64,000 nucleotides of DNA, taken from positions 220,844,001 to 220,908,000 of the forward strand of contig CM097882.1 in assembly GCA_044892505.1 (NCBI GenBank). The letters are read 5' to 3'. Shown piece by piece: positions 24,330 to 50,763 of the stretch. Position 1 is the stretch's first letter, and each line of letters opens with the position of its first letter. The notes under the pieces were generated by a model. It ran no database searches and was not told the DNA's origin. It saw only the letters and a program-made list of their open reading frames with translations. Both the position numbers and the translations under genes were made by a program. This stretch comes from Schmidtea nova. Lineage: Eukaryota.

Positions 24330-25900
24330 TTTTTATGTTCTTTCTCTAGCATCAAATTCATAAAGTCAATTTTAATTTCATAAAAATAAAATTTTTAATT
24401 AAAATTTTTAAAAATATTTTTCATATTTTATTTTTAAAATTAAATTTACAATTTTATAAACAATTCCAAGTGTCAGGGTGAAAACATTCAATTGTTACAG
24501 ATTCTCCATAAAATAATTCTTAATTCTTTTCATATTTCACTCTCATTCCGTGTTGAGAACTTGGCGTAACAATTATTTCATTTGTTTGTCCGAATTTGTT
24601 TATATAATTTCCGATCATCTCTCTACTGACCTTATTCCGATTCAAAACAAAAGGTCCCATCTAAATCAAATATGGATCGAGTACATAAATTTGTTCGATT
24701 TCATTCCTATTTTCAATATTATCAATGGATAATGTCGCTCTTTGCACAATTGCAAATTTTAACTTTTCATGCGAATTAGGTGATTTTATTTTTAATTTTT
24801 CTTCTTGTTTTTCATTGTTTTTTCGCATATTGTGATTTCTGTCATGTTGGTTCTCATTGTTTCATGGCCGCAAATTATGCAACATTTATGACGGCAACTG
24901 CCTATGGACATAAGCAGACTACACATTCAACGTTTTCCATTTTATTTTTGTTTTTGACTTTATCAATTAATAAATTCTAAGTTAAAACAATTTCAAAATA
25001 AATACTAATTCTTTCAATTTTGATTGGATAAAATTTATATATTACAATTAGATATAATAAAATTTTAAATAACGTATACTCTGATTCTTTAAAAATTATA
25101 TCTTTGAGTTCGAAATTTTCATATCTTATAAAGACTTAAAAATTTCTTTCTTTGAGTCTTTTTGTTCGAGTTTTTTTGTAGTTCTATCATGTCTACGTTG
25201 TTAATATGAATGAAAAATAGTCTATCTAAATTTTTGAAAATTGTTTACCTCAAATATTTTCTGACAGACAAAATAGATCTTTTTTATGGGGGATGCCTGA
25301 GGTTTTCTGACAATGATAGTAACATAATATTTTATAATTGGTTTTATTATTCTATTTTAGGTTATACTATTCTTTTGAAAGTTATTAATGACTCTCGTTT
25401 ACTTCTTCCCAAATGTTGCACATGTTATCTGTGCTGGGTTCATGGAGGGGTTAGATGAAAAATGTTCTAACAATGACTAGGGATCCCTCATCCATGATCA
25501 TACATAAAATTGCAATTATACACTCAAGCGCCCTTGATTATTTCCCTATATAATCAAGTTGGTGATGCGCAGGGTGGTTAAACAATGATGGGAAGGTGAG
25601 CACTATCACTAGTACTACTCCCCATTTATGTTTACGGGTTCATTGCTGCCGTTAGAAGGACTTATGCTTTAATCATCCGCTTATTTATTCCGCAATAATC
25701 TTTCAGAAAATTTATCTTTAACATTGCTTATTCTGCATGAAGTGTGTTAACAAAATGCTCGCTTAATTATTTATTTGCCTTTATTAGGTATTTTGTGAGA
25801 TGAGTTTATATTTTTTTCCTACAGTTATCTAATTATTTGTTAAGCTAACTAAATCAATTTAAATGAACAATAACAATTTTAAGATGACACGAAACTTTAT

Positions 25901-26497
25901 TCAATCTTTAATTAGTTCAGTGAAAACTCCGGCTGGGGGAAAGATTTCCGTTAATAATTCCGCTTCGGTCATTTGATGCAGGCCATCTACTTGGCTCTGT
26001 AATCGTTGGGCAAACAGCTTTCTTTGCCGTCGTCTTTTCTGCCCGATGCGCTTGCGTTTCTGGTGCGCATTTACAGTTGGAGTGGCTGGAGTAATTTCTG
26101 GAACTGGCTTATTGCGTTCGTCAATGAGATCATCGACATCGGTACCAATCGAGTTGACGCTTTTCTTTTCCGATGTCCATTCCTGATATGTAATAGGACG
26201 GATTTGATCTCGCAGTTCCTTCTCGATGTACGAGGCAGTTACGGAATGGAGGCATTTTCGAAGCTTTATTTTTGTAGCCTCCCATTCCATTTTATACTCT
26301 GTTGCAGTTTGCTGGGCACGTTCGGTTTTACTGATTTGCTCCTTCATCCTAGCCGGAGCAAACCAGCTTTTGCGTAAATATGTGACTTGCGCCTCGGCTT
26401 TAATTAATTGTGCTTTGAGGAGACCCAATTCCTTGTCCTGGGCTCTCCGGATTCGCCACATTTTTTCCAACTCCCTGTGTGCCACATCGGTATTCAT
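25901..26497 (-). CDS. Unknown 198-aa coiled-coil protein with a basic NLS-like stretch (KRKRIGQKRRRQRK); probable retroelement accessory ORF
   Basis: Intact ORF, GC well above the flanks, ttctag|aATG acceptor context. Confidence 0.55.
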   Translation of the reverse strand: MNTDVAHRELEKMWRIRRAQDKELGLLKAQLIKAEAQVTYLRKSWFAPARMKEQISKTERAQQTATEYKMEWEATKIKLRKCLHSVTASYIEKELRDQIRPITYQEWTSEKKSVNSIGTDVDDLIDERNKPVPEITPATPTVNAHQKRKRIGQKRRRQRKLFAQRLQSQVDGLHQMTEAELLTEIFPPAGVFTELIKD

Positions 26498-26687
26498 TCT
26501 AGAATTGATTTACGATAATTACTTTTGTCACTTTATGGTTCAATTATGTGTAAAATTAAAAATCTGAATACATGATTATTAGGTTAAGAACGTGATCGAT
26601 TTAATAATACAAAACAAAAACTCAAAACAAAAACCACTGATGAACATTAATATTTTTACTCATAAACAAATTATCGTCAAAAATTTC

Positions 26688-27167
26688 TTATCGCCGAAAT
26701 AGGCTGTGCATCTCGTTGTTTATCGGCAGCTGACGAAGGCGAGCCCAAGAAAACGAGGGTTGTCCTTTCTGGCATTCCTTGCCGAACGGTTTCCGCGGCA
26801 GAAACTCGTGCAGGCCCAATCGACACAATTCTCGGCGAGGGATATGTCCCCAATAAATTATGCGGCTCGCTCGTCCTTCTGCGTCCTTTATTACCACGAT
26901 CATTCGACCAAATTTGTTCGAGTAAGGCCTTTGGTTAATTGGCCAGTTCGGTCCTCCACGATAGAGTACTTGGTCACTTCCTCCTGCCCAAATTGAAAAC
27001 GGGCATTTCCGACCAAACCCATGTCTCCACTTATACATTTGGGCATTGAGGGTCCGTAATATCGGTGTAGGCAGCTCTTTGAGTTGAGAGACCATTCCAT
27101 TTTCTGCATTCCATTGTTCCAAGTTCCGCATTTGAGTCAATTGGTTCATAATCTCGGCAGTCGACAT
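26688..27167 (-). CDS. Unknown 159-aa basic protein; probable retroelement accessory ORF
   Basis: Intact ORF in a GC-elevated island, aatttag|ATG context. Confidence 0.5.
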   Translation of the reverse strand: MSTAEIMNQLTQMRNLEQWNAENGMVSQLKELPTPILRTLNAQMYKWRHGFGRKCPFSIWAGGSDQVLYRGGPNWPINQRPYSNKFGRMIVVIKDAEGRASRIIYWGHIPRRELCRLGLHEFLPRKPFGKECQKGQPSFSWARLRQLPINNEMHSLFRR

Positions 27168-27215
27168 CTAAATTACTTTATTGAATATGAAACATAGGAT
27201 TTAACGGAGGAAATT

Positions 27216-28617
27216 TGTTGGGAGAATTATTGATACCGCGTATAATCACAAAATTTAGTTTAAAATAAGATTTAATTTATTTATCTTCGCCGCGATATAC
27301 CACGGTCGGAATTACGTTTTTATAATTACATGGCCTTACGCTAGCTAAAGCGTTCAAGAAAAATAAAAGTTAAAAATCTCCGCGCTATGTACAGCGATCG
27401 GTCTATAAATCAGGGAATTCCGCGCCATGTATGGCGATCGGTCTAAGATTATTTTTAGCAGTTGTATAAATTATTTAACAGGAATGTAGTGACGTATTTT
27501 TGTCTGTAATCTCTAAGTAAATCTTATCGAGTCGCACTTTGACCCGTAATGAAATTCGAAATTTGATCGAGTGGAATACCATTTTCTCTCATTCGTATCA
27601 TCTCGCATATGCTCCAGAACCTCAAATTTTTACCCTAAATTCTTAATACTTGGGAGGCTAATACCTGACTTTCATTTTGTGCTGCATACCTTCTGGTAGC
27701 TCTTTCCGCCTTTCCTACTGCGCTCCACACTATGCCCTCTGTGCAACCGACTGTGCGATATTTTAATTTTAGTTCGAAATTCGTCGAAAATTTTTACAAT
27801 TCATTATGAAAATATTTATCAAATAACTAAGTGTGAATCGAAAATCATTAGTAATAAATTAGCATCTATGCCCGTTCTCGAATTATGCTCACAAAATTAA
27901 AGGAATAAAAAGGTTGAACCGCCATGTGAGACCGTGAGGCCCCACAACGACGACTCGGACTCCCTCGTCGCGTGAGCAGCCTAGGAAGTATAATTATATG
28001 CATTAAAATATCAAAAATAAAGTAAATTTGAAATATAAAATTATAATTGAATAAAAATCATGGGTACATTAACATCATAAAAGAAACAAAAATAAAATAT
28101 TACGTTCCGTACTTGAATGTATTATTGAATGTTTCCTTGGATTTGAAGTAAATCTGGTTCTCGAAAAATCGTTCGGTTAAATAGAAAAATAGTTCTTAGA
28201 ATCAAAGTTTAGTCTTGATTGTAAGTTTTGATAGCAGTTTTTTTTAACAGTTGAGTTGTGATTTTTGGATCGGTATTTATACTGATCCGTCTGGTTGGAT
28301 TGACCAATCAGGATCAGACCGTCCATCAAAGTATTTTTATTATTTTATTCTAACCTAAACATTATTTTGTTTCCTTTTCCGGTTTCTCGCACTATTATTT
28401 TATTTAATTCTATCTTTTCTTATTTCAGGCCCCCTATTGCTGTTGTTTACCGGTTTATTTTCAAAATTTCCTTTTACTGAAAATTTATCAAATATTATTT
28501 GTCATTTTATTCTTGTTTTTAATTTGTTTTTATTGTTATTTTTATTTTTATCATTTCCTTATTGTTTCATGTTTTCGTTCTTTTATTGTGTTTTTAGGTG
28601 ATTTGGCGGGCCCAACA
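27216..28617 (-). repeat. Candidate 3' LTR of the giant element (unconfirmed)
   Basis: On the - strand it starts TGTTGGG and ends CCCAACA, like the inner element's LTR termini. It is non-coding and follows an AGGGG-containing tract. The partner LTR is not in the window. Confidence 0.3.
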
Positions 28618-28819
28618 TCACCCGGGGACCCCTAAAATTGCGTCCCGCAATTAATTATACATAAATACTTATATTCATCATCCATAAAAAGTTTTATAAA
28701 GTTATACATGCAAAGAAAAATCACATAAGGTGATCGAATTTATACATATCATAAAGTTTGTCATTAAATAGTCAAAATATAATGATTTGTCACAATAGTT
28801 CGATAAGTTATCATAATGT

Positions 28820-29464: not shown

Positions 29465-30511
29465 TTATACAAGGGTTTCGTTGGGTTCGTGAAAACCTTC
29501 GTCTTGAGGTTCCACCTGGTTTATGGGGAGTGGCATCCATATTATCGTGCTTCTCCACATTTCGACTTCTTCTCGGTATGTGTGGGATATTTGGATCTCT
29601 TCGTCTAACAAGTATTCCAGATAGTTTGCTTGTTCTGTTAGGGTTTCTATTTGTTTTTCTAATTCCGTTAATTTTTTCTCTCTCTCTTCCTTCTCCATCA
29701 TTTCTGCTACTGCTGCTGTGATACTTGTTTCTTTTGTTGGTATTGGTTTTTCTGCCAGCTTCTTTCTCAGTTCTTCGTTTTCTTTTGTCAAATTTGTTAT
29801 GTTCTCTTCATAACTCTGCCTCGTTTCTTCCAGTCTTTCTTTAGTTCTTTTTAATTCTATTTTCTTCTGGGTAATCACTCCTTGATATCCATTTATGTCT
29901 CTTTTCATGTTTTCTTCCTTGTGATTCCACATACCTTTTTATTGTTCTTGATTGGCTAAGTCTTCTCCCATTCTTTGTCCTCGATAAGTTAATTCTTTAA
30001 TTTTCTTGGCTTGTTCCCTGATGAATTGTTGTCTTTTCTTACTCCATACTTTATTTGACGCTTCTTGACTGATCTTTTGCCCTAATTCCTCTTTTAATTC
30101 ATCGATCTCTTTAAACAGTTTCCAATCATCGCTGTACGCTGTTCGTTCTATTATCTCCCTTGCTTCCTTGTAAGAGTCTTTTGCCTCTTTTTTCCAATAT
30201 CTTGCTTGTTCTGTGATTGACTGAATCTTATGGTCTGTTTTTATCTGTTGTCTATCCCTATCCTCTCGTCGCTCTTTCATCATTTCTTTGTAGTATTCAT
30301 TTTGTTGCCTCAGCAATTTGTAGACTTCTATTTTCTCTCGACTTCTTTGATTCGTTTTCTCGGCTTCTCTTAATACTTCGGTTTGTCTTTCCAATTCCTC
30401 CTGTTTTCGATAATAGGCATGGATCCATAATCCAATCCGTTCCATATGATTGCTGATAACTTCGTCTTGATGTACGGTTACTTCTTGTAAGGTTACTTCT
30501 ATATTTCCCAT
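29465..30511 (-). pseudogene. ~348-aa E/K/R/Q-rich coiled-coil protein split by one in-frame TAA (29939-29941)
   Basis: ORFs 29939-30511 and 29465-29932 share a frame and are 6 nt apart. Heptad-like composition. Confidence 0.6.
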
Positions 30512-30624: not shown

Positions 30625-32001
30625 TTACGCCAACCATCCTTTTCTATCCGTTTTCTCATGTCTCTCCATTTCTATGTATAACGTGTCCTCGTATAGTCGC
30701 TCCCATAGGTTTTCTTTCCTTATAAACATTGGTTCTCCTGCTGCTAGTCCGCATTCTGTTGTTGGTTTTTCGCTCGTACTCGTATGTTTGTCGGTTTCAA
30801 AGAATTTTTCTACCGGTTTTCCCATACTTCTGATTCTTATAATGACTCCTACTTTCAAGGGCCATTCTATTAGGTCATCGTATTCTCCTTTACATAGCGA
30901 GAAAAATATTGACACGTGTGTTCCTTGTCCTCTTCCGTCTCCATTTGGGTATACCTTCAATCTTATCTTAACCCCATTTTTCCATAAATAAAATGGTGGG
31001 CTTATTACTGCTGTTTTAGTCATATTTCGAGCTTCTGTTAGTTTGTCTCGGAAATCTGTTATTTTCCATAAGTAAGGTGCAATTGGTAAGTCCCTTCTTT
31101 CGTCAATTTCTCGTATTAATTGATTATATTGTATTTCCATTCCTTTTCCCAATTCTTCTATGACTATTATTTTTTCTTCCATTCTTTCGCGAGTTAGTTC
31201 AAACTGCTCTCTCGTTTCTAGTAGTAAACTCATCATTATTTTATGTGATTCTACTTCCTTTTCCAATTTCTGGATTGTCTGTTCCGTTTCTTTTGCCGCT
31301 TCGTTTGTCATCTCCACATGCATTAATGCTGCTTCTTCTAGATGCTGTTTCATGGTTTGCCGCGTCCGCTTCTCCTCGCATCCCTGTTTGTTATATGGGC
31401 ATTCTCTTGGTCTTTCGGTACATACTTTCCAATGTTCATGTAACTTTATTTCTTCTGTTATTTCACAATTGTTTAGACATTTGCTTACATATTTTCCGCA
31501 TACTTTCTCCTCTGTTATATTCAAGTGTTCTTCTTCGATTTTTCTCCTCGTTTCTCGAGTTTCCCAATACTCGCATGCGATTTCTTCTTCTTTACATTTG
31601 TCCTTGTGTTGTTCTCTCTTCTTTAGAATTATTGTCTGTTGGCACTTCTCGCATTCGGCTCTTTTCTCCTCGCACTTTTCCATATGATTTTCTATATTAC
31701 TTATTTGCCCTTGCCATGTACAAGGTGTATTTATACACTCCGTTATGGTGCTCATAATTTCTCTCTGGGTTGCTTTGTCCGTTCTGGTTTCGTCCAACAC
31801 TATTCTTCCTTCTTTACATTCTGGGCATGTTGTTATTCCTGTTGCATCTAATTCTTGCATACATTTTGTACATATTCTACATCCACATATCGTTTGTCTG
31901 GGTTCTCGTAATAAATTGTTACATTTCCCGCATGTGAGCCTCTTGCTCCATTTTCTGTTTTCTAGTCTCAAAATTTCGATTACTCGTTCTTCTCTTTCCA
32001 T
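30625..32001 (-). CDS. Intronless full-length TRAF-family protein (RING, TRAF zinc fingers, coiled coil, MATH/TRAF-C), most like TRAF2/3/5
   Basis: CGKCNNLLREPRQTICGCRICTKC..CPEC RING; repeated C..C/H..C fingers; YLWKITDF..SPPFY..LKVYPNGDGRGQGTHVSIFFSLCKGEYDDLIEWP MATH motif. Confidence 0.93.
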   Translation of the reverse strand: MEREERVIEILRLENRKWSKRLTCGKCNNLLREPRQTICGCRICTKCMQELDATGITTCPECKEGRIVLDETRTDKATQREIMSTITECINTPCTWQGQISNIENHMEKCEEKRAECEKCQQTIILKKREQHKDKCKEEEIACEYWETRETRRKIEEEHLNITEEKVCGKYVSKCLNNCEITEEIKLHEHWKVCTERPRECPYNKQGCEEKRTRQTMKQHLEEAALMHVEMTNEAAKETEQTIQKLEKEVESHKIMMSLLLETREQFELTRERMEEKIIVIEELGKGMEIQYNQLIREIDERRDLPIAPYLWKITDFRDKLTEARNMTKTAVISPPFYLWKNGVKIRLKVYPNGDGRGQGTHVSIFFSLCKGEYDDLIEWPLKVGVIIRIRSMGKPVEKFFETDKHTSTSEKPTTECGLAAGEPMFIRKENLWERLYEDTLYIEMERHEKTDRKGWLA

Positions 32002-32093
32002 TTTCTACAATAATATATACACTCGACTTGTCATTTATTTTTGATTTATCTTGTTTTTATTTTTACATATTTACAATTTTCCGCTTTATTTAT

Positions 32094-32450
32094 CTATGGC
32101 TCATTCGTTGAATCTGGTTCCGTTTCGTTGTTTAATCTATTTATTACCCAACTCATCCATCCTTCTTCGGATTCCTCTCCTTCTCCTCGTGTTAAATGGT
32201 TTATTTCTATTGCTTGTCTTTGATTGGTGTTGCTTATCGTTTGATTTTCTCTGGTGAGTTCGGTTATCACTCTTTGTTGTTCTTCTATTCTGTGTAATTG
32301 TTCGAAACAGTTGTTATAACTTTCTGATAGTAACATTTGTTTTTCCGCTAATTGGTTCTGTAATGAGTTGACTGTTCGTACTCATAAATCGCATTGTGCT
32401 TTCCATCTCATAGCCATAGTTATTTCCGTTGTTTCGTCTTGTTCGGTCAT
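32094..32450 (-). pseudogene. 118-aa coiled-coil accessory ORF with one in-frame TGA
   Basis: MTEQDETT...CDL*VRTVNSLQNQLAEKQMLL..., with tttag|aaaATG context. Confidence 0.5.
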
Positions 32451-32575: not shown

Positions 32576-35500
32576 CTATACATTCATTACTATCCCTTCG
32601 TCGTATCTTTCTTCGTCTTCTATTTGTTTCCAGAATTCTTTACCTTTCGTTCTTCTTTGAAATTCTTTCTGTATCTCTTCTGGTATTTCTATTCCTTGTT
32701 TCATAATTTTGATATCTGGCCATTGTAAGGCTGTCGCTTTGTTTCTCTTCCTGTATTTCCAGTATACTATCATGCTGGTCGTCAGTATTCCATACGCTAT
32801 TAATATTCCCATACTGATCAATCCTATTACTGCTTTTCCCATGTTTGTTTCTTTGTTTTTATTCTGATTTACTTTTATCTCATTTTGCGTTTGAGCCTCT
32901 GGCCTCTTCTCCTTCTGCACTTGACTCTTGACTTTGTTCATTACTTCTTGTGTAGACCAATGGCGATTTAGTAGTTGTTTGACGTCGTTTTCCGTTGTCT
33001 GGTTTTCTACGCCTCCTGGTTCGATCCGTTGCTGTATTTTCTCTGAGATCTGATATAATCCGCATTCTGGTTCTTCTGAACCTTTTCTGGTAAAGGTACA
33101 TATCGCGTATGTCTTATTTACTTCCATTTTCTTTAATTCGATTTTTTCGTTATTCCTTGTTTCTTTACAGTGGGTTAAGTTGTTTTCTTCTACTTCTAGG
33201 TTATACTTTGTCCAACATATTCCCTTTACTGTCTGATCAAGTCCTGTTAATGTCAGAGTTCTTTCTGTTTTAGTTGTTGGTTCCTTTGTTAACCCTTCTT
33301 CATCGAATTTCAGTATCTCTCCTTTTTGGAATGTCTTGCAATTCTCTATTCCTGGTTGACTTTCTTGGGTTCCTTTCTCCCATATACATATACTTCCTTC
33401 TCCGTTCATTTGTATTTCTTGTATTTCGGTTTCCTGGTTTGTTCGTGATTCGTCGCTTGTCTGAACTTGGTATTCCCTTGGTTCGTTGTACCATCCCCAG
33501 CATATTTTGTTGCTACTCTGGCCTTTTCTCCTTATTGTCATAGCCATCTGTTCTATTGTTATTCCTTTATCAATACGTTTGGACATTGCTATTATTAACG
33601 CTATGCATACGAAGTCCTGTTGGGGTGATACTCCTTCTCTCGTATTATTTGTGCTTCTCTCCCCTTCTCTTGGTTTGTCCGTTATGTTTTTCATCTGAGT
33701 TGCTGGTTGATCTATTGTGTTTTTAATTTCTTTCTTTGTTGGTTTTACTTTATACCATTCAAGTCTAGGCGTTTCATATTTTTGACATACGACTGTCTTA
33801 GGTAGCCCCGACTTCTTTTCCCTTTCTATTATGCATATCCGATGCATGGTTCCTCCATCCATTTCTTCTATTCGTACTATATCCTGGTCGGATTTTCTGA
33901 TTATGCATTTTAGTGGGTTATTTTCTCCAATTGGTTCATCTTCTCTATACCAACATATTTTCTCGGCTTCCTGGACATTTATTACTTTTATCCCTGTCTG
34001 TGGGTTTATTGCTTCTTCCCTATTGATCAATGTCAATATTATTGTTAGACCCAACCATTTTGAACTCTGCGGTAGGCTTCTGGTTCGTTTTTCATATTTC
34101 GTCTCTTTGCCTTTAATCTCTTTTATTTCTTTGTCTTCGTTGTTCATTCCTAGTTTTCCGATTTTTGCTTCTTTCTCATTCCTGGTCGATTTTGGTTCTT
34201 CTCGTGCTTTTTCTTCTAGTATTTCAACTCCATGGCTTGTATTATCTATATTTAGCCATTGGGTTGCCGATTTTCTTGGGTTTATCTTGCGTATCCATAT
34301 AGCTGATAATGCGATTATTACTGGTATGGTCGCTGTTAATATTCCTAAGCCAATTAATTCTTTAATTTGTTTATTCTCGTCTGTTTGTATAGATTCGCTT
34401 TGGTTGAACATTATTCCATATTGTCCTTTTAGTTTTCTCCTTAGTTGTTCTCGTTCCTCCTGCTTTCTTTTGACTTCTTTGATAACTTCTTCAGGTGTCC
34501 ATTTTGCTTGAGGGTCGGTTATTATTTTTTCTGCGTCCATTTGTTCATTAGTTTGGCTTAGTTCCTTGAATTCGATTTTCCTTGCTACTCCTTTTGATGT
34601 CGCGTTTGCTGGTGTATAGTAGGTTTCGCATCTTTCTTGTTGGTTTCCTAGTGCGTCCATTTTTTCTATTGCGCATACTTCGTACTCGCTATTAAATTGT
34701 AGTTTTTCGATCTTGATTTCTTTATTTGTTTTTCTGCACTCTCTTGATTGTCTTCTTATATGTTTCTGGACTATTATCCAACATATTTCTAATGTTTTAT
34801 TCTCTATTTTCCATAGTGTCAGGGTTGCTGAGGTCTTTTTCTCGGGTTTTGTCGTAACTTCTTGGCTTATCAGTTGTTTATTGTTTTTAAAGGTAGTGGT
34901 GTACTTCGGTTTTCCTTTGTTTCGTTGTCTTCTTTTATTTTTCCGTATTAACGTTTTGGTTCTTGTTCCGGATGAAGTTGTATATATTCCGCATTCTAGG
35001 TCGTTTATCGTTATTTGATCACCTTTCTTTATCAGACATATTTCGTAGGTTTGCTTACTTTCTAAACCTTTTATTTGTATCGTCGTTGCTCCTGTGCTTG
35101 TTCGGCATTGTGGTGTCATTCTTTTATTTGTTTCCTTTTCGTACCTCCTCCAGCATACTCCTTTCACATTTGGTTCTATCTCTTTTATTTCTAATGTTAT
35201 GTTTACTTTCTGCTTGATTTGTTTATTTCTCTTCCTCGTTCTCCTTCTGAACTTTATTACTTCTCCAGGTTGGAATGTTTTACATTTTGTGGTACCTTTC
35301 TTGTTTCTCTCTTTTTCTAGTAGGCATAGTTTGTACATCTTGTCTGCTCTTACTTCGGATACTTTAATTACTTTATTTGTTGTTGGTTTTCAACTTTTCC
35401 TTATTTCGTTTACGCCGATTTCTTCGTCATTCCTCGCCCAACATTTTATGTTAGTATTCTGTATATCTTCCACTTCTGTTATTGTCATAGTTTCAATTTC

Positions 35501-36796
35501 CATCCCTTCCTCTAGTCGTTTTATTATTATTAGTATGAGTGCTAAGCATAATACTTCCATTTGGTAAGACACTCTTTCGGTTTCGTTTGTGGTAACTCTT
35601 GCTTCGGGCCTCTCTATTGTAATTCGTATAGTTGGTGTTGTTTGCTTATCTATTGCCTGGGGTTTTTTGTTTTCTGTTCCCTGTGTCTCTGTTCTTCCAC
35701 ATTTTCCGACGATGTAATCTCCTTTGGGTGACTGTTGTACTGTCATGGTTGCTTTAGGTGTTTGGTAGTTTGCACATGCGATTGTGTTGTGTGATCTTGG
35801 ATGCTTTTGTTTTCTAACGGTGCATATTTTGTACCAGGTATTTAGATCTAAGTCATCGATCTCTATGATCTCTTGCTCGTGTTTTGAGATTCTGCAATCC
35901 ATCGGACTATTTTGTTCCGTGATTTTGTCCTTTTTTGACCAACATACTCGTTCGATTCCTTTTGCGTTTTTTATTTGTATTATTGCCCTTTCTTCACATG
36001 TCATTCTTTGACTTGGGTTAATTAACGTTAAAATCACTGTTAATAATAGTAACTCTGGTTTGAAGAATGGTTTTATGGTTGATTTGTAACCTGTTCGTTG
36101 GGTGTCATTTTTATCTCCTTTGTCTCTTTGTTCTCCCTCTTCATTTCTTTGTTTTTCGTCTTCATTTTTCTTTTCTTCTTTGTCTCGTTTCTTGTCTTTT
36201 CTCTCGTTTTCCTCTTTATCGGGTGGTTCGTGATCGTTCGAATTTTCTGAGTTGTTATCGTCGTCACTATCTGTATTGTCATCTCCCCCTGGCTCGTCGA
36301 AAATGTCGTCCTCGACATTGATTTCTTCTATTAGTTTCGCATACGCTAATGTCGTTAGATTGCTTGCCTCAAACTCTTGTGTTTCTACATGTTCTGGTAT
36401 TACTTTGTTAGTGGATTTATATTCCAAGATTTCCTTTTTGGCCTTGATCCAATTGTTGATGTATGTCTTCATCAATTCTTTCCATTTGCCTATGTATTTT
36501 TCTTCTTTCGGGCTGGTTGTGATTCTTAGATCTTTTCTTTCCATAAACATTTTCAATATCTCTGGCCATTTATACGTTATTAAGGCACTTCTTATACACC
36601 AGTTTTGGTTATGTTCTGTAAACTCATTGATCCTGAATGCTGGTTCGTTAGTATTCGGATTTATCCACGTAAGAATTGCTTCTGTTAGTTCGACATTATG
36701 CATCATTGTTAGTACACTGGGTTTCTTGACCGTATCAGTTAGGTAATCTATTTCTTCCTGATTGGAGATTGTAATATGAAGTTGACCATTTCCCAA
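32576..36796 (-). pseudogene. C-terminal polyprotein segment: acidic linker, then two duplicated modules of signal-like segments + Cys-containing FN3-like repeats + TM
   Basis: ORFs 35390-36796 and 32576-35338 share a frame (TGA at a conserved Cys position). Repeats follow ICW..C..I.I..L....Y.IC..C..Y.TP. TM segments IGLGILTATIPVIIALSAIW and IGLISMGILIAYGILTTSMIVYW. Confidence 0.7.
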
Positions 36797-37956
36797 TTAT
36801 GTGTTAGTAATGCTACATCCAAAATTGAATTATCTTTATCTGTCTTTCCTGTAAGTCCTGCACCTGCTTTGTATAGTTCTTCCAACACCTTTGTTTTTGT
36901 TTTAGCCCTTGCTGCAAATACCATAAGTGTATCTCCTTTCTCGTCTACCATATTCATGTTGCTTCCGCAGTTTAGCATTACTCTTGCAATTTCCATTACT
37001 TTTCTATCTTTGCCATTTCGTAGAGCTCTATGTATGGGCATTATTCCGTCCTTTGGTAGTAAAAATGTTACTGGCATCTCTTTTTTTATAGTCGTTATAT
37101 CGTTACCATTGTATGTTCCTTTTGCGTATGCGTGTACTTTTTCAACTAATGCGCCGAGTATTTCCAGTGCATGTTTACTATTCTCGAATTCCAAAAACAA
37201 TTCTTTTGCTTTTTCTTGTATCGCATCTAGTCTAGCTTGGTATGGTGCTTCTGCTTTGAAGAGTGGTGTGAGTTTCTTGTTACTTTCTCTTTCCTTTTTC
37301 TCCAAAACCTGTTTGCATTTTTCGGGATGGTTTAAGATTTTTACTAATTCCTCATACTCACTTACTATCGTCTGGTATTTCTCGTTAAAATTGTTTATGT
37401 CTTTGTATGTTATTAGTTTATCAAGTGGTTTCGCACACCATTTCCTAATCTTGTTGAATAAGGCCTCCTTCTCTTTATCGAATTTGTATTCTTCTTCATT
37501 CTTTGTGATGTTTATGTTTCCTCTGTCTAATAAGGTTAGTAATGTCTTTTGATCGCAAGTAAATTTCAAAAGATATCTTAACAGCGCGTTTTGTGCTTCG
37601 CTGTATACTTCGTTAATGTCTAAGACCCATGTATCATCTTCTGGTCGTTTCCATTTGATTAACTTACGGATCGTGTTGCATTTACCAATTTTTATTGCTT
37701 CTTTGATAATGTCTCCTTTTATTAATTCGTCTATTTCCCACGTGGAGCTAGCTATTATGTATTTCAGCATTGGTTGGTGAGAACTCCATATTACGTGATT
37801 GAGCACTGTTTTGTCTTCTCTATCTCGTTCTGTCCAACTGAAACGGGCTTTTATCAATAAATCTACCATTTCTTTATCTGCTTGGTGGATTGCGGCTGTC
37901 ATTAATGGAGTTTCTTGTTCACGATTCCCCACGTCCAAGTTTTGGTTTGTTTCTTT
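36748..37956 (-). pseudogene. Ankyrin-repeat segment, 3' part (after the nested insertion)
   Basis: ETPLMTAA, KTVLNHVI, GIMPIHRAL, GDTLMVFAA and NSILDVAL ankyrin cores. Probable 1-nt frameshift near 36770 into the next segment. Confidence 0.85.
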
Positions 37957-39009
37957 TGTTGAGGTTGTTAAATTAAAATTATCGTAAATTAAATTAGAAT
38001 TATTTTGAATCAAAAGAAAATTGAAGTGAAACGAAAGAGAATCGAAATCGAAGCTGGAAAACGGAATAGGTGTAGATCAGGGATTGGCGAAGAAGATAGT
38101 GAGCAAGAAATTGTCAGAAAAGGTCTTGAAAGGGTTGAAAATAGGTAAAAAAGGTTAAAACAGAAATCATTAATTAATTAATTAATTGGCTAATGGAAAA
38201 CCCGGGCTAATGGGAAGTCCGAGCCAATGGAGAACCCGAGAGATGAAGAAACCTCGAGCACGGGTATTAGGGAAAATAAACAAACTGAACGTTGGAGAAC
38301 GATTATCAAAACAAACAAAACGACTTTTGGAGAGACATTATTTGAACAACCGAGCGCGGCAATCGAGAAAAATAAACAGTTTAACTTTTAGAGAACCATT
38401 ATGGAATCAACAGGATAAGTGAGGGTAAATAAAAAAAAAGATCGGAAATAACATGAAGGAACGGTAGAAGTGATTAATTACAGTTATTTTATCATAATAT
38501 CAAAGGAAACCGCTGGTAATCAAAATGATTATTGGAGTATATAAGGAGACTCCAAATTCAGAAAAGGCGGCGTTAGCCTTAGGTAGGGAAGAAGAAATCG
38601 ACAATAGGTTTTGGAGATTGTGAGAAGAAGTGAAATTGGGAGAAGTGGAAAATTAAGGAATCAAAGAAGTCAGATCAAGAAAATTAAAGGATATCAAAAG
38701 TGAATCAAAGAGTTGAGTGAATTAAATTCAAAATAGTCAAACACATCGAATCAAAGGCAAGGAGTCGAATAAAGGAATTAAAAGGTGATATTTACTTTCA
38801 GATCGCACAGGGTCGAGACTTCCGAGGCGAGGCTTGATCGAGTAGATAAAAAGTTTGATTATTAATTTATTGTTGTGAAATCGGTTGTGATTGAGAAGTG
38901 TAAAGTGTGATAACAAATATACGTTGGGAAATCGGAGTTTATTGATTTGTCTGAACACGAGGAGTCAGAGTAACCAACGATCAATCTTTTGTTATTAGAA
39001 AACCCAACA
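37957..39009 (+). repeat. 5' LTR (1053 bp, TGTTG...CAACA)
   Basis: Differs from 50764-51835 by 3 substitutions I could see, two 1-nt A-run indels and a 17-bp duplication. Confidence 0.97.
38538..38544 (+). promoter_or_regulatory. Candidate LTR TATA box (TATATAA), with an Inr-like TTCAG ~20 nt downstream
   Basis: Motif and mid-LTR position only. Confidence 0.45.
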
Positions 39010-39017
39010 TATATTAT

Positions 39018-39035
39018 TGGTGAGCCCGACGTGAT
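39018..39035 (+). promoter_or_regulatory. Primer-binding site complementary to the tRNA-Trp 3' end
   Basis: TGGTGAGCCCGACGTGAT; reverse complement ATCACGTCGGGCTCACCA vs eukaryotic tRNA-Trp ...ATCACGTCGGGGTCACCA. Confidence 0.85.
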
Positions 39036-39227
39036 CTAACGTTGGTGAAAGATTATTGAAAATAGATATTTGCGACTCGATATAAAGTGATAGAGAAGTA
39101 TTGAAAATTTGAAGTTGAGTTTGAAAGTTTGAAAGTTGGCTGAGGACAAGTAAATTTAATTTGTTTTTATTTTGAATTTTAGATCAAAGTGAGTCGATAT
39201 AACCTCAGAAGTTTGAAACAAACACAA

Positions 39228-40262
39228 ATGGCAAATGATAATGCTGTTATGCCTCTCAATAGAGAGATGATTGATTTTGCAAGCTGTCAAAAATTACCGG
39301 TGAATCAGTATGGTGGAGATCCGGTTGAGTTTGCAGACTTCATGGGAGATTATTATATGTATGCCAAAGCTTATGGATGGTCACAAGCAATAATGGTACA
39401 AAGATTTCCGTTATACTTAAAGGGAGCCGCAAGAGAAGCTTGGCAACAAGTGGACAAAAGGACAGTTGGAAATGATTGGGCAAAATTGAAGGATGCAATG
39501 GCAACGAAATTGGTAGGTTGAGATATCAAAAGGATAATGCGACAGAGATTTTACAACAGAGTTCAAAATCCAACGGAATCGGTAAGTGAGTTTGCATATC
39601 ATCTAAATACTTTAGCAGATAAAGCCTTTGAAGCAAAGCCTGAGCAAGTTGATATGGTGAAGCAGGTTAAAGAACTGCTTCAAGATCAATTCATAACTGG
39701 AGCTCATCCCGAAATAAAGAAGGCATTATGTTATGTAGATTTTGCAAATTTTGATGAACTTGTGAAGAAAGCAATGAAAATTGAACTGAATTTAAAAAGC
39801 ACCAGAAAATCTGAAGCATTCGCAGCAAATGTTGAAAGGAGAGAAAGGTCGATAACACCTGTCAGAAATCAATGGGAATCCAAGAGACCAATCCAAACAA
39901 TCAGTTCTCCCAGATTAGGTACTAAGATAGAAACTAACAAAGCAGCTTTTGGTAGCCAGCTAACCGAGAGATCAAATAGTGTCGTATGCGAGCACTGCAA
40001 AAAAATCGGACATTATTCGAACCAATGTTGGTTCAAATATGGCAGAAATAGTAGTCCTAAAAGAATATTTGTGGAAAACAAACCAAACAATAGCAACTTG
40101 GAATGTTATCGATGTGGGAAAACGGGTCACATTAGCAGAAATTGCTTTTCTAAAAATCGATCACCATCAACATCTCCGTCACCGCAACGAGATAAAGTAA
40201 ATACAAATGGACAAATTCAATGTCATTCATGCAAAGGTTATGGCCACATGGCTCGATCATGC
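39228..40262 (+). CDS. gag: Gag region: capsid-like domain plus three CCHC zinc knuckles
   Basis: RFPLYLKGAAREAW, then CEHCKKIGHYSNQC, CYRCGKTGHISRNC and CHSCKGYGHMARSC. Confidence 0.93.
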
Positions 40263-40789
40263 CCAAAGAATGCAGAAAGATTCAGCAGACCAATACTGAA
40301 GAGATCTATTAGATTTCAGGATGAATCATCCAACGCTAATGTAGCTTATGCTCAAAAGGACGAGTTTAAGGAGAAAATGGAAAATGAATTCCGGGAAATG
40401 AGACAGAAATTAAACAAACTAATGTCAAAATTCGAATCAGATGAGGAAATTGATTCTTGTATGGTGTACGAAAAAGAAACCGATGAAAAAGAAAGTCTTG
40501 GAGATAAAGCGAAAAACGACTTGTCAAACGAAAAAGCTATATTATTGATAAATAAAATAGAAAGATGGTATACGAGGATGGAAACAAATAATCCAAAATT
40601 GAAAGAGTGGATTAGCGAACTATCTCAAATGCAACTCAGCCAAAGAAAGTTGAAAAATATTTTAAATTTATGTTCAAAGTTCTACAATAAATCTCAAGAT
40701 GATGAAATTGCCAAACTGATGAAAATATTTGGAAAAGCTTTGAGATTGACAAAAGGTCTGCCTGATATTTTTGTAGAAACCACCGATGG

Positions 40790-41465
40790 AGATGACGTAA
40801 AATTTCACTTTTCTATTAAACCAGATGGGCAGATAAAAGATTTGAGAAAGCTTATTATGTCAAAATACCAAGGAAATGAAGTACAAATAAAATTTATACA
40901 ACGTCAAATTGGTCAATTAGCGGATGAGGAATTCTTGGTCGATTATGGTCTAATTCCTGGATATAAAAACGAGGTAAAAATTTTAAATGTCATTAATTAT
41001 TCAAATTTAGCTGACAAAAGTTGGAAAAAAAAATTACAGGATTTGCGAGATATGCTATATGTCGGAGATGAAGATGAAATTAATAAATGCCTTGATTATA
41101 TAATGAATTCAGAAATTGATCAAAAATCAAAAGAACAATTATTTGAAAATATTTTACCTTATATTCATAAAACAACAAACTATCAAGTTAAATTGAAGGA
41201 AGTAATACGAATGCTAGGTCATGGTTACCGAGTATCAGATCATACTTCAAAATCCTTAGTAATAGCTCTAAATATGAATGGAAAAGTAGAATACCTACAA
41301 GAGCACTGGAGCATAAAGGTGGCGAAATTACGACGGAAAGCTGCAGAAACATTGGGCACCGATGGAATCATCATACTGATTTTCAAAGGAGTGGAATTAG
41401 ATGATGACGAATATTTTGTCAATTGCGGAGGCAGCCCGAACTATATAAATAATGTCTATGCCACA
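40790..41465 (+). CDS. Two ubiquitin-like domains within the polyprotein
   Basis: IKDLRKLI...LADEEFLVDYGL and VAKLRRKA...LIFKGVELDDDEYF resemble the ubiquitin V..LK..I / LIF.GK.L.D...L.DY.I pattern. Confidence 0.55.
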
Positions 41466-41909
41466 ACACAAATGAATATTTATGAGGATGGAACTCATTG
41501 GCCCTTTATCGTAAAAGAAGATGATAACAATACTGTGATCAAAACTGAATTATCTGAGGAACCGAACGAAAACGAGTGTGAAAATTATAAAAGCAAATTA
41601 ACGGAGGAACCAAGAGAAGCCGAGTGTGACGAGTGCGAATCAAAACAAACAGATTTGAGTGAAGTGCAAAACGAGAATATTAGTAATGAAGCAGATAAAA
41701 TTTGTGCAGTAAATCAAGAGATTAGCAATGTAATTGAAGAGATGTTAATTGCAGAGAGAATGAAATGCGAATCGAATTTTGTAGAAACAGAAGACGGTGG
41801 TCAATCGAACAACCGGAAGCGAAGAAAATACAAGTTAAACAATAAAGAGGAACTAAACGATCTAGATAAAACGGAGTCCAGTGATGTGGAAAAATTAGAC
41901 TTAAATGAT

Positions 41910-42280
41910 GTAAAGCAAACAAAATTAATTCTTAAAGGGTTGGCATCGGAATTATATGCACTGGATGAAAAGAATATATGTAACGATAAATTCATACAAC
42001 AACTTGCCAGAGAACTGAAAGGACGACTTCCTGTAGCACTTAAAAAAATTAGTAAAGAAGACATATTTTGCGACGAAACAGTAATCAAAGAGCTAATTAA
42101 AAACGGTTTGAATAAAGATGTGGTATTATCAGTCCTTGCTTATATTGTTTTCGAAATTGGTATCTACCGTTGGCTGGAATCTGATGAATCGGAAAAGTGG
42201 ATAGAACAAGCAGCAAAAGTGGTAAATACGTATGTGAATAGTTGGATCAAATGTAATGGTGGATGGAAAAATTTGACACC
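41910..42280 (+). CDS. Bcl-2-like domain within the polyprotein
   Basis: VVLSVLAYIVFE (BH1/alpha5-like) and YVNSWIKCNGGWKNL (BH2 WI..NGGW), followed by a hydrophobic segment. Confidence 0.7.
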
Positions 42281-42326
42281 AAAACCAGAAAATTTGGAAA
42301 GGGTGTATGAGCCAAAAAAGGGGAAA

Positions 42327-44190
42327 ATGATAGTTCCATGGGTATCTATGTTTATTATCATAATATTAGGATTTATCAATACTACAACGTCATTGGTAGC
42401 TTATGATTGTTCTCAAACAGAAATGGGAAAAGTATACTCGCTAGTAGATGTAGCTGAATGTCTGGATGCATATCCGAGACATTTAAAATGGGCAAGTGAG
42501 ATGAAATATCATGTTTATCAAGAATCAGGATTTAGACGAGTAAAAGTGAGAGAGTGTACGGCAAAAAGGACCACATTTACATTTTATTGTGGCAAATGGA
42601 GTCATTCGTCGTTAATAAAAATGCATTCAATCCCTAGAGTAATTGAGATAACTCGCGAAAACTGTTTAGCAGCGTTTCAAACAGGAGAATTAAAAATAAA
42701 TGCGGAAATTAAGTTAAAAGCGAAATTGAATCACAAAATTCGCGAAACAATTGCAATAAAAGGGGTGATCAAAGCAAATGGCGATTGCGAAGGTGAATCG
42801 CACAAGGTGGGTGAACAGGTTATTGATAAAGTCGTTGTTATAGAAGAGTACGAATCAGAGTTGAGATATTTTGATGGATCGTTCGATGATGACACGGGAA
42901 AATTACAAACGCATCCATTTTGCAATATGAGAGAAACCAGTTGTAATACAGGTGAATCAATTTTAGTGTACGACGTGAATGTGAAAAAGTGTAACTTAGC
43001 GCATTTAAAATCGATGCCTTTCAAAGAGATAACAGGAGAGCAAATTCAAGAGAGACCAGAAAGTACAATTCTAAATTCAGTGATGAATACAACGATTAGA
43101 ATTACTCCTTTGCGAATGAAGGATACTCCAACGGTATTAATGGCAATATCCCCGAATGATGGGATGAGATTTCTCAGAAAAGGTATAAATACCAAGTGTG
43201 GACAAACAGTATATGAAACAAATTATAAAGGAATTTACGTATCAAAAAGAATTGTCGAGGAAGCTCAAACGAAGTTATATTCAGAGGAAATTAAACTAAC
43301 GAATTATTTCAATAACAAAATTGATTATCTGTTTCATTTTAGCCAAGATACGGTTGAAAGTGTGTATCGAGAAATTATATTAAATGATTGCAAGTTAAAT
43401 AAGGAAATTTTGCGAAACAGAATGGCGATGGCTATTACAAATCCGAATTTAGTTGCTCCAATGCTAATATCAGAGAACGGAGTATTTGCTCGAATTTTTG
43501 GCGAAGCGTTGTATAGCTATAAATGCAAAGCTGTACCTATCAAATTGATGAAATTCGATCAATGTACAAATGAATTGCCAGTGAATTTTAACGGGAAATT
43601 GCGATTCATGGAACCGGTGACACGCATCCTACTGGAAGAGGACGTGAAGCCTAAAGTGTTGCAATGTAATAGATTATTGGCTCCACTGTATCGCTTGACG
43701 TCTGAATCATGGATTGCACTACCCGATCACAGAGGAGTGAAAGTTCCAGAGAAATTGGAGTTAACCAAATTAGAGTATTTGATTAATTTTACATCGCTAG
43801 ATAGTATGACGCAAAGTGGGATGTATTCAAGTGATGATATTGAAGCGGCCCGGAGAAATTTATTATTTCCATCAAAAAAGGAAAGGGTGATTATGGAAAT
43901 GGTGGACACTATTCTCCCGAGTGGAACTGGGAAAGCAAATTACGACTACTTGTTAACACCTGATCATTACAAAAGAGCAACATATAACACGATGAAAAAG
44001 ATATGGGGAAAGTTCATGTTTATTGGTCAAGCGTGTGCTGGATTAATTGGAATCTACGTAATAGGAATCGTGATTAAAGTAATAATCTCGCAGGTGTTGT
44101 CAACACACAGATTGTATACTATTACGGGATTGTCTTGGAAATTAGTCATGGGATGCGTTCCATTGCTAGCCAGATTTTTTATCACACATC
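42327..44190 (+). CDS. env: Internal signal peptide + viral-type class III fusion glycoprotein (chuvirus G / gB-like) + TM
   Basis: MFIIIILGFINTTTSLV-AYDC; YSLVDVAEC; FYCGKWSHSS; DCKLNKEIL..MA.TNP; GEALYSYKC; CTNELPV; C-terminal hydrophobic segments. Confidence 0.8.
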
Positions 44191-44599
44191 ACCAGTATAA
44201 AGAGATGGAAACTTTGAAAACACGACTGATGAAAAAGAAAAAGGTAAGTTATATCGATTTGACTACTACTTCTAACGATGACAAAAATGATGACGAAAAT
44301 ATCAATGAATCCGCCCCGTTATACTCGGAGGAACGAATGCAAAGTAACACATTGAAAAACTATCAACTGCTAAAAGAATCGCTGTCCAATAATGATAATC
44401 AGGATACCTTTTCTAGATTGTGTATACCAAAATCGTTTATCCAACCACTACCAGCATATCCAGTCGAAAAATTGAGGGAAATGAAACCAGTCGAAAATAT
44501 TGCTTTACAATGTGAGAGAATCGAACCAACAAGTGCCGAAATCGAAAGACGAAACCGGTTAGGTTTACCCGGAAATTATGTATTGATGACGTTAGCAAA

Positions 44600-44940
44600 A
44601 ATTGGCAAACAACCACGAATATTAATCCAACTAAATAAAAAGAGAGTGGAGGCTGTGGTGGATTCAGGATCAAGTCATACAATTATATCAGAAGAGATAT
44701 TGTCGGCAAAGGAAAAAAGACAAATAAAACCATCAAATAGCATAATCAGATCACTGTCTAAAAACGTATTGAGAATAATTGGAGAAATAGAAGTGGTACT
44801 TCTAATTGGTGACAGAAAGATTACACATAACGTACAGATTATGGAAAAAAGCCCTGTATTGTGTTTGATTGGAATGGATGTACTGGAGCAGTTAGACGGA
44901 ATTTCACTGGATTTCAAAACTGGAAATTTGATCGTGGGAA
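44600..44940 (+). CDS. Retropepsin aspartic protease
   Basis: AVVDSGSSHTII (DSG at 44661) and CLIGMDVL. Confidence 0.92.
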
Positions 44941-45349
44941 AAAGTGGCGAAGTCATTCATAATTTAGGAGAAGTATTTCTCAGTCAAGCGTTAACCATCC
45001 CACCTCAAACAGAAATAATATATTATGCGAACGCTGCTGGCGTAGACGATGACGAATTTATATTTGAACCGAATCAAACGTTAATAGAAAAATACGAGAC
45101 CCCGATGTGTGACGAAATTGTGAAAGTGGAAAATCAATTATTACCAGTGCGAATAGCTAATTATGGTGACAAGTCAATTCGGCTAAAACCAAAGACGAAA
45201 CTAGGAAAATTGTCTAATATGTTGATAGAAGCGGAAAGGAAGATTCCTAGAAACGTAAAAATTTATAAAGAACCTGAAGTAGTAAGTACTGATTTGACCG
45301 AAGAGCAAAGGCAAAAGTTTACAGAATTGTTGAGGAGATACCGGGATAT

Positions 45350-46650
45350 TTTTGCGAGACACGAATATGACTTGGGGTTAACAAATATAATTGAACATGA
45401 AATTCCGTTGTTGGATGAAACCCCGGTGAAAATAAAACCGTACAGAATACCATATATTCATCAAACCGAAAGTGATCGACAAATTCAAGCAATGAAAGAT
45501 TTTGGAATAATCAGAGATAGCTCATCACCGTTTTCGGCGTCCATTGTAATTGTAAAGAAAAAAGACGGAGATTTACGATTTTGTGTGGATTACAGAAAAC
45601 TGAACCAGGTAACAAGAAAGGATACATATCCAATTCCTGTACCCCAGGAAATGTTCGATCAGATGGGAGAAGCTCAATATTTTACTGTGATTGATTTGAA
45701 TAAAGGGTATAATCAATTTAAAGTCAAGGAAGAGGATAGAAAGAAGACAGCCTTTTCAGATGGCAAAGGGTTATTTGAGTTCAATGTTCTACCGTTCGGT
45801 TTGACGGGAGCCCCGGCTACATTTCAAAGAGGTATGAATTTTGTATCAGGAGGCTTAAAACACGCGTTAGTTTATATTGATGATATTATTATATTTTCAA
45901 ATAGCTTTGATGAACATCTCGATGATGTTGAGGTAGTATTTAAACGACTAAAAGGAGCAAAATTGAAAATAAAACCATCGAAGTGTGAATGGGGAAAGTC
46001 CGAAGTGGTGTATGTTGGTCACATAATATCAAGACGAGGTCTACAAACAAATCCTGACAACATTAAAAAGGTGGAGGTGTATCCAATTCCAAAGAATGCG
46101 GATAATGTGAGGCAATTCTTAGGATTAGCAAGCTATTATAGAAAGTTTATAAAGAATTTCTCGCATATAGCTCAACCGTTAAATTCATTATTGAAGAAGA
46201 ATAACAAGTTCATATGGAACAAAACTCAACAAGAAGCTTTTGACGCACTGAAGCAAAAATTAATAACGACACCTATTTTGCGATGCCCGGATTTTACAAA
46301 ATTGTTCTTATTAATGACGGATGCCAGTAACGTTGCATTGGGCGCAGTGTTGGGTCAGAAAGTAGATGGGGAAAAGGATCACGTGATAGCGTATGCAAGC
46401 AGGTCACTGAGACCACACGAAAAAAATTATTCAACAATTGAAAAAGAAACCTTAGCGTTAGTTTACGGAATCGCTACGTTTAGACAATACTTGCTGGGAC
46501 GGAAATTTATCGTATACACTGATCACAATCCTCTTCAATGGTTGATGAAGCATAGAGATTCAGCTAGTAAATTAATTAGGTGGTCAATAGCTCTTTAAGA
46601 GTATGATTTCGAAATTAAATACAGAGCAGGGAAAGCTAATGCAAATGCCG
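45350..46650 (+). CDS. pol: Reverse transcriptase and RNase H
   Basis: VKKKDGDLRFCVDYRKLN, LPFGLTGAPATFQR and YIDD (45873); TDASNVALGAVL, YSTIEKETLA and TDHNPL. Confidence 0.97.
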
Positions 46651-46949
46651 ATACAATGTCCAGAATTCCCAATGGAGGCAGTGAAAGTGAAGGTAGTACA
46701 GAAACGATTGAAGGCACGATATTTGCCGCAATTAAAGCCGTTAACAATATGATAGAGTTACAAAATGAACAGAAAAAGGACAATCAACTTAAACAGTTTT
46801 TTGAACGAGCAATTACAGTCGAAAAAGAGAGAAATTTAAAGCAAATAATCAATGAAAATCACAAATATATAATTCACGAAGGAATATTAAAATGTGTAAA
46901 AAACGGTGAGATACTAATCGTGATTCCTGAAAAACAGAGAGATTCATTA

Positions 46950-47990: not shown

Positions 47991-48109
47991 GAAGACGATG
48001 AAACAAGATATCCACTTCGATCAAAACAAAACAAAGAAAAAGTGGATGCCATAGTTCAACAAAAATTTACCAAAAACCCAGTCCCAATCAGTTACATTAC
48101 AAAAATGTT

Positions 48110-49220: not shown

Positions 49221-49428
49221 CAATGAGTTTATATTGCATGCATGTATATATATAAAAAAAATATATATGTATATAATTATTGATAATCTGTATGGTTAAA
49301 AGTAAATTAGAAATGTGTGACCTGAATGAAAAATATTTTGGTTGATCGAGTGTTGCTGAGGAGGGTCTGTCCTTGTGCGATGGAAGGAGAGATGTATTTA
49401 AAGTATTAATTATCTTTAACTTTAGGAA

Positions 49429-49672
49429 ATGCAGGAAGAAGAATCACTAAAAGAATGCCTTAACACCATGAAAGAGATGAGAAAAAAAAATGAAGGCAAT
49501 GGAGAAACGAATTTTCGATCTGGAACAAGAGAATTTGGTGGTCAAAAGACGATTTGAAAAAATGGAAATTCTTCTCTTCAGATATGAAGCCGAAGTGGTT
49601 CTATGGCGAATGAAACTACAGGAGCAGGAAGACGAAACTATGGAGGAGGGAGAAATGAATAACTTGGACTAA
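49429..49672 (+). pseudogene. Small coiled-coil accessory ORF with a slip in an A-run
   Basis: tttag|gaaATG QEEESLKECLNTMKEMRKK / MKAMEKRIFDLEQENL. Confidence 0.4.
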
Positions 49673-50751: not shown

Positions 50752-50761
50752 AAAGGGGAGA
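50752..50761 (+). promoter_or_regulatory. Polypurine tract
   Basis: AAAGGGGAGA, 2 nt before the 3' LTR. Confidence 0.85.
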
Positions 50762-50763
50762 TA

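Follow-up and report, generated by a model that had tools for sequence, protein, structure and literature searches.

Giant gypsy-like retroelements of planarians, the Burro elements, have been listed with MATH_TRAF_C, BIR, ankyrin and BCL2-like motifs, and in an element of D. tigrina the MATH domain is found in an accessory ORF lying upstream; it was already proposed in the same source that Burro meddles with host apoptosis and ubiquitination (PMC6431247). One such product, the Burro1 B-IAP, shields stem cells against death mediated by caspases (Lee et al. 2026 Dev Cell, as cited in PMC13465017). On the host side, RNAi of planarian TRAF-like genes raises caspase-3 (PMC7586133), and an expansion of planarian TRAFs has been described without a link to elements in the passages concerned (PMC6109357, PMC7586133). 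Transcripts with TRAF fingers and transcripts with ankyrins are, in turn, enriched among piRNA targets (PMC6824462, also PMC11663942). Among viruses, ORF111L of the Megalocytivirus ISKNV is a viral TRAF that is pro-apoptotic through TRADD and caspase 8 (PMC3352826).

We analysed a 64,000-nt stretch of the Schmidtea nova genome (hereafter the window; assembly GCA_044892505.1, contig CM097882.1, positions 220,844,001 to 220,908,000), in which a first-pass annotation had pointed to an intronless TRAF gene carried by a retroelement. Its placement was borne out, because the TRAF ORF lies about 2 kb internal to the 3' LTR of a minus-strand LTR element and within the LTR pair of that element, which measures about 29 kb once a nested insertion is subtracted (Table 1). 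The 5' LTR is located just beyond the window end (L031:2375-5592) and differs from the 3' LTR by 12 mismatches in 3,218 columns; the element is flanked by the target duplication TCTG and contains a PBS-like site. Its env is an in-frame fusion glycoprotein (Pfam PF24664) within the polyprotein, which is followed by four short ORFs in the order ORF a, TRAF, coiled-coil ORF and hydrophobic ORF. The window copy is broken: its polyprotein contains stops and a frameshift, has a deletion in RT/RNase H and is split by the nested insertion; sister copies contain long open polyprotein frames in pieces, which were left unjoined. We call the element Burro-like by its described architecture, not by sequence against the named Burro1-4 consensus: it shares with Burro a size of about 30 kb, long LTRs (~3 kb), a single giant polyprotein, an env in frame between gag and pol, and ankyrins thereafter. 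As for the BIR, MATH and BCL2-like motifs, MATH is present, BIR occurs in one related family only (family E, see below), and no Pfam match to a Bcl-2 domain was obtained in the scanned stretch of the family A polyprotein.

Table 1. Features of the TRAF-bearing element and their positions in the window
Feature	Position	Strand	Remarks
3' LTR	25432..28618	-	3.2 kb; TG...CA ends; two ORFs inside
Accessory ORF with hydrophobic segment	28820..29389	-	5' part disrupted in window copy
Accessory coiled-coil ORF	29465..30511	-	~350 aa; one stop in window copy
TRAF accessory ORF (family A)	30625..32001	-	458 aa; intronless
MATH/TRAF-C domain, aa 310-446	30664..31074	-	receptor groove partly altered versus TRAF3
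Predicted coiled-coil helix, aa 225-301	31099..31329	-	AlphaFold model
Five TRAF-type zinc fingers, aa 89-228	31318..31737	-	PF02176 and five ligand sets
Trp146 codon (CEYW)	31564..31566	-	private to window copy
RING, aa 24-62	31816..31932	-	eight Cys ligands; the fourth is Cys (CGC), as in planarian host TRAFs
Splice-acceptor-like TTATTGTAG	32005..32013	-	3 nt before TRAF ATG
Accessory ORF a	32094..32450	-	118 aa, matching no family; one stop in window copy
Element polyprotein	32576..62826	-	gag - env (PF24664) - protease - RT - IN - ankyrin - membrane tail
Nested smaller env-bearing gypsy-like LTR element	37957..51835	+	13.9 kb; TSD CTTT; no TRAF

Several further features of the region were recorded. 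The LTR contains two ORFs (26688-27167 and 25901-26497), each with a YAG ahead of it, and the 5' leader of the element includes tandem arrays of 32 and 31 nt (63340-64000). Most sister copies share the internal region (~94%) but differ in their LTR, a pattern suggestive of LTR exchange; sister copies also contain an additional unannotated ORF of about 170-180 aa between the LTR and gag. The nested element has its own in-frame fusion glycoprotein, LTRs of 1.07 kb and an ORF extension after the integrase. Elsewhere in the window we found a minus-strand remnant of a piggyBac-type transposase (DDE_Tnp_1_7; 21106-22360) and two long inverted-repeat pairs (19665-21041 and 6829-8432), probably MITE-like or TIR elements.

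The assignment of the 458-aa product to the TRAF family, with a RING, zinc fingers, a coiled coil and MATH in a single uninterrupted frame, was confirmed by Pfam, PDB and AlphaFold/Foldseek. Pfam recovered MATH_2 (5e-22), TRAF-mep_MATH (3e-19), zf-TRAF (1e-7) and, weakly, TRAF3_RING (0.004). The C-terminal MATH/TRAF-C domain scored above the cut-off for PF22486/PF21355 and matched TRAF3 in the PDB (6e-24); overall, the C-terminus aligned with TRAF3, TRAF5 and TRAF2, and the N-terminus with the RINGs of TRAF5, TRAF6 and TRAF2. The AlphaFold model (pLDDT 82.9) predicts the RING, the fingers, the helix 225-301 and the MATH sandwich, and its top Foldseek matches were TRAF3, TRAF1 and TRAF2. The ORF thus combines a MATH/TRAF-C domain, a coiled coil preceding it, TRAF-type fingers and an eight-ligand N-terminal RING; finger 3 has a long His-to-Cys spacer common to the host planarian TRAFs. 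Word-indexed protein searches returned just non-flatworm or unnamed TRAFs, at 24-27% identity, and no element-type TRAF was among the best 150 matches of a full HMMER protein search.

The open frame, two unusual motifs and a codon style rich in A had also attracted attention in the first-pass annotation. Outside TRAF, the window copy contains 8 stops in about 5,930 aligned codons, a rate at which a frame of 458 codons would escape stops with a probability of about 0.54; the intact frame is therefore expected by chance. Likewise, across 30 copies there were 7 stops in 13,723 codons of TRAF and 3 in 10,313 codons of the polyprotein tail, so that the rate per codon in TRAF was not below that of the tail. 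The CEYW motif, which removes one Cys from finger 3, is indeed present, but it is restricted to the window copy: residue 146 is Cys in 29 of 30 family A copies and Trp in one, and Trp was again found once among the 27 copies of a set chosen by flanking DNA, from which three of the 30 copies had been dropped as not gap-free. The private changes of the window copy, seven non-synonymous and two synonymous, are in a neutral ratio, indicating that, to judge from its substitutions, this TRAF has drifted neutrally since insertion, and CEYW was not confirmed as a meaningful loss. Similarly, the canonical C3HC4 His at the fourth RING ligand is absent, as had been noticed, and replaced by Cys. This CGC gives no support for degeneration, since it occurs in 30 of 30 family A copies (all of which keep the eight RING Cys) and 22 of 22 family B copies, as well as in most host TRAFs of the Schmidtea nova genome and in TRAF-2, -4 and -5 of Dendrocoelum. 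Among 101 motif-matching database proteins the fourth ligand was His in 83 and Cys in 11. As judged from these alignments, the substitution preserves a zinc ligand and CGC is a planarian host trait.

Genome searches defined five families of element TRAFs, with copy numbers that are lower bounds throughout. Family A, that of the window, gave 92 scored matches, all of them full-length and 93-100% identical. The remaining families showed amino acid identities to the window protein of 76% (D; 87 of 92 scored), 51% (B; 73 of 82 scored loci, 23 of them retrieved), 44% (C; 10 of 88 matches) and 36% (E; 144 of 144 scored). In all five, TRAF occupies the same slot downstream of the polyprotein. It was present in all 30 family A copies (window included) of a set picked by 161 nt of upstream DNA, and open in 21 of them. 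In 39 other sister copies, picked by the DNA just 3' of the integrase, TRAF was found at most 10 kb downstream in 33; three of the others have it 20-24 kb away, a placement that was left unchecked, and three break off before the slot. These results are contrary to an absence of TRAF from sister copies, which had been considered at the outset. Four of the six family C copies examined lack RT-RNase H-integrase and retain TRAF. Family E, which numbers at least 144 copies (at 97-99%), is an element of about 16 kb that lacks RT, integrase and env and in which a BIR-RING IAP comes immediately after TRAF (L222:7007-9886, L227:7437-10000); family A has no IAP. In one E-related copy (L102:7332-8786), the TRAF-IAP block is replaced by an unrelated ORF of 484 aa with a signal-peptide-like start and no Pfam match, so TRAF is dispensable in that element, and the accessory slot looks modular. 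As a separate observation, the family C copies that share the loss of RT-RNase H-integrase have near-identical LTRs (L166-L168, L188-L190, L191-L193, L197-L198).

We examined codon usage and substitution patterns in these TRAFs. The A-rich style noted at first was that of the element: the frequency of A at four-fold sites was 0.66 in the window TRAF, 0.56-0.66 in element TRAFs and 0.59 in the polyprotein, versus 0.30-0.39 in six host TRAFs. For variants common to at least four copies, pN/pS was 0.10 in family A and 0.13 in family B, in sets picked by protein score (L018, with a 6-nt deletion, and two identical rows were dropped), and 0.12 in the set chosen by flanking DNA, where singletons gave 0.58. 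Between families A and D, dN/dS was 0.11 for TRAF, 0.07-0.22 for other accessory regions and 0.005 for RT; by domain, MATH was the most conserved (89%) and the RING the least (60% identity, dN/dS 0.25). A codon model returned omega values of 0.087-0.096 across element families, although dS is saturated between distant families, and we rely only on the A-D and within-family values; the host omega of 0.03 is likewise saturated. All 28 zinc ligands were invariant in 22 family B copies, and the RING and five fingers keep invariant ligands across families only 36-76% identical. These values indicate that TRAF evolves under purifying selection in the elements, with an omega of about 0.1 as estimated from the alignments. 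Such selection means a benefit to the element and does not imply the nature of that benefit. A neutral passenger, or an independent host retrocopy fallen into this one element, could account for the neutral private changes of the window copy, and host TRAFs are single-exon too; nevertheless, the same slot in five families, hundreds of copies, the low omega and the element codon style leave this reading with a negligible probability, and at the family level it is already refuted. The view of TRAF as a captured gene, which stems from the first-pass annotation, was instead upheld, and TRAF is a stable gene of the element, given its presence in sister copies, its purifying selection and its relationship to planarian host TRAFs.

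The host TRAFs that we found are single-exon genes, mostly clustered on C2 and C3 and most with a CGC RING (L087-L094, L110, L111, L122, L235), in an inventory that is non-exhaustive and finds multi-exon TRAFs poorly. A genome search with PF21363 gave three matches and added one host locus. One host TRAF is 70% identical to Dugesia japonica TRAF2-like A. A further host TRAF, at C2:416.82M, was considered as lying inside an element and rejected, as the LTR pair of the neighbouring element ends before it.

In phylogenies, the element TRAFs formed one clade (support 100/99), included with the planarian host TRAFs in a group separate from those of other animals (100/97 and 100/100; host_C2_452.98 and host_C3_43.80 were dropped from the second tree). 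Within this group, one host subgroup was placed with weak support (88/80) as the sister of the element clade, and monophyly of host TRAFs was not rejected (AU p=0.43); for this reason we only infer the nesting and the direction of transfer, the latter, from host to element, from the ordinary composition of the host genes and from the occurrence of related genes in other triclads. Since Dendrocoelum proteins fall in both host subgroups, either the capture is old or the donor is unsampled. The branching E,(C,(B,(A,D))) of TRAF is the same in the protease and in the downstream ORF, whereas the ankyrin-region tree differs, joining B weakly with C (71/74). Together, the trees suggest that the element TRAF was likely captured once from the TRAF group of the planarian host, a capture that would have proceeded via a host mRNA.

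The first-pass annotation had also raised the possibility that some reported host TRAF expansions are partly element-borne. In the Schmidtea nova genome, at least 406 element copies stand against 10 host loci found plus two duplicates on small contigs (both counts being lower bounds), a ratio of at least 40:1, so TRAF counts can indeed be inflated by elements. Conversely, some host paralogs are independent of the element and have relatives in Dendrocoelum and Dugesia, indicating that the host expansion is also partly genuine.

A putative expression signal precedes the TRAF frame. Families A-D keep the motif TTGTAG 1-3 nt upstream of the TRAF start codon, and family E has TTTTAG ahead of a second in-frame TRAF ATG. 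The acceptor pattern matched 23 of 30 copies and missed seven. Of 16 accessory starts, 12 had a YAG 0-3 nt ahead of them, as compared with 64 of 475 control ATGs; the 16 starts are not fully independent, and family E was scored as negative on the basis of its first ATG. Within family A alone, five of six accessory starts had a YAG (p=2e-4). These signals suggest a spliced RNA, joined at the AG that precedes the ATG, as the likely route of TRAF expression; as sequence signals, they fit cis-splicing and spliced-leader trans-splicing indistinguishably. Contigs from four runs, of unknown kind, showed no joint or loose end at the acceptor among the rows listed, which is uninformative about splicing.

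Because the RING, fingers, coil and MATH are all retained under purifying selection, we argue that the element encodes a working TRAF. The explanation that we favour, and consider somewhat probable, is that this conserved full-length TRAF, which a Burro-like giant LTR element likely captured a single time, acts in the cells that support replication of the element, as an adaptor and ubiquitin ligase favouring survival. Translated from the spliced RNA, the protein would form trimers through its coiled coil, its MATH domain would bind host receptor tails or adaptors with a shifted specificity, and RING-dependent or IAP-assisted ubiquitination would lower caspase-driven death. Vertebrate TRAF2 works with cIAPs. 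We favour a pro-survival role from the retained domains, the effect of RNAi on host TRAF-like genes, the Burro1 IAP, the TRAF-IAP tandem of family E and the TRAF2-cIAP parallel. Against it stand the lack of an IAP in family A, the altered receptor hot spots of that family and a RING that is less conserved than any other domain in the A-D comparison.

The latter two points bear on a different proposal, a dominant negative, which the first-pass annotation had put forward together with a mimic. Here, the element TRAF would join or out-compete host trimers and damp innate-immune or stress signalling without signalling itself. Mapped by motif, via the TRAF3 alignment, onto TRAF2 residues named in PMC6125299, family A keeps Y395, F410 and F447 but changes R393 to K, L432 to I, S453-455 from SSS to TST, F456 to S and C469 to E, and thus departs from the conserved TRAF1/2/3/5-type hot-spot set. 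The receptor groove, unlike that of TRAF3, also varies among element families, the A-D comparison shows faster evolution of the RING than of MATH, and copy number is very high, all of which would suit a decoy. However, host planarian TRAFs likewise deviate at these hot spots, and the RING and five fingers keep their ligands under purifying selection. Engineered dominant-negative TRAFs usually lack the RING. The two motifs noted at first, CEYW and CGC, are copy-private drift and a planarian host trait, respectively, and so leave the dominant-negative role without positive support; we regard it as unlikely, while placing it first among the alternatives to a pro-survival TRAF.

Slightly less credible is a ligase directed at the element itself, in which TRAF would ubiquitinate a protein of the element or a restriction factor of the host for particle assembly or escape from silencing, with no role in death signalling. 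TRAF is kept in copies without RT, integrase and env, it co-diverges with the element, and its MATH domain is strongly conserved within A and D (89%) and differs between families, as might be expected of such a ligase. Nonetheless, nothing points to a substrate, TRAF is missing from both the nested env-bearing element and the E-related copy, and the IAP and ankyrin cargo points to death or immune signalling. A further possibility is that TRAF promotes cell death and particle release, as would be suggested by analogy with the iridovirus ORF111L (PMC3352826). Viral TRAFs were among the top matches in a BFVD fold search, and the element has an env-like gene; but in family E the adjacent cargo is an IAP, and an element transmitted through the germ line would presumably gain from survival of the host cell, making a pro-apoptotic mimic quite improbable. 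We therefore retain the pro-survival reading.

A broader proposal, which we advance tentatively and hold as doubtful, is that Burro-like elements carry a spliced, co-evolving survival kit of the TNF-receptor type. A TRAF captured once in early triclad history would work with the element IAP, be kept by families shedding RT, integrase and env, and supply much of the TRAF activity of planarian stem cells, and likewise much of the reported 'TRAF expansion' and of the piRNA-targeted 'traf' transcripts. The enrichment of piRNA targets matches both cargo types found here and is a lead, not a test.

MATH and IAP cargo in Burro is already in print, and the complete stand-alone TRAF extends that cargo. 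Our literature searches returned no account of a full-length TRAF borne by an element as a stand-alone gene, although Grohme 2018, Jurka 2007 and Lee 2026 may show it (for Grohme and Lee, also in figures or supplements); the main text of PMC8532177 does not contain 'TRAF', nor that of PMC11410931 'MATH' or 'TNF'. What had been a listed domain motif becomes a complete signalling gene under purifying selection in a retroelement lineage, reminiscent of host manipulation by viruses. After the Burro1 IAP, TRAF is a second candidate for survival functions supplied by an element in a tractable regeneration model. Host genes and element cargo may also be intermingled in planarian TRAF/MATH counts, in RNAi reagents and in lists of piRNA targets.

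Among known systems, the element TRAF resembles the Megalocytivirus ORF111L in being a TRAF captured by a mobile parasite, with a RING, a coil and MATH; ORF111L, however, comprises 296 aa, is encoded by a large DNA virus, is pro-apoptotic, has its nearest relatives among fish TRAFs and originated independently. With Dugesia japonica TRAF2-like A, Dendrocoelum lacteum TRAF-2/-4/-5 and Smed-TRAF-2A/B (PMC7586133) it shares the domain order, the finger-3 spacer and one clade, and with the three Dendrocoelum proteins and the Schmidtea nova host genes also the CGC RING (the D. japonica entry is without the RING part). Unlike the element genes, planarian host TRAFs are only 26-29% identical to the window protein, have the host codon style and lie in low-copy clusters outside LTRs. 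The Burro1 B-IAP is a captured cell-death regulator in the same kind of element, and the BIR-RING IAP of family E adjoins TRAF; function has been shown for B-IAP, whereas the element TRAF is known here from sequence and family A has no IAP. The closest likeness in architecture is to Burro1-4/GYPSM1 as described in PMC6431247, with a size of ~30 kb, long LTRs, a huge polyprotein with in-frame env, ankyrins, and TRAF-related and IAP-related cargo. In that description, Burro1-4 have only a MATH_TRAF_C motif, placed in the polyprotein (S. mediterranea) or in an upstream ORF (D. tigrina), whereas the window element contains a complete TRAF, from RING and fingers to coil and MATH, as a separate ORF downstream and behind an acceptor-like AG.
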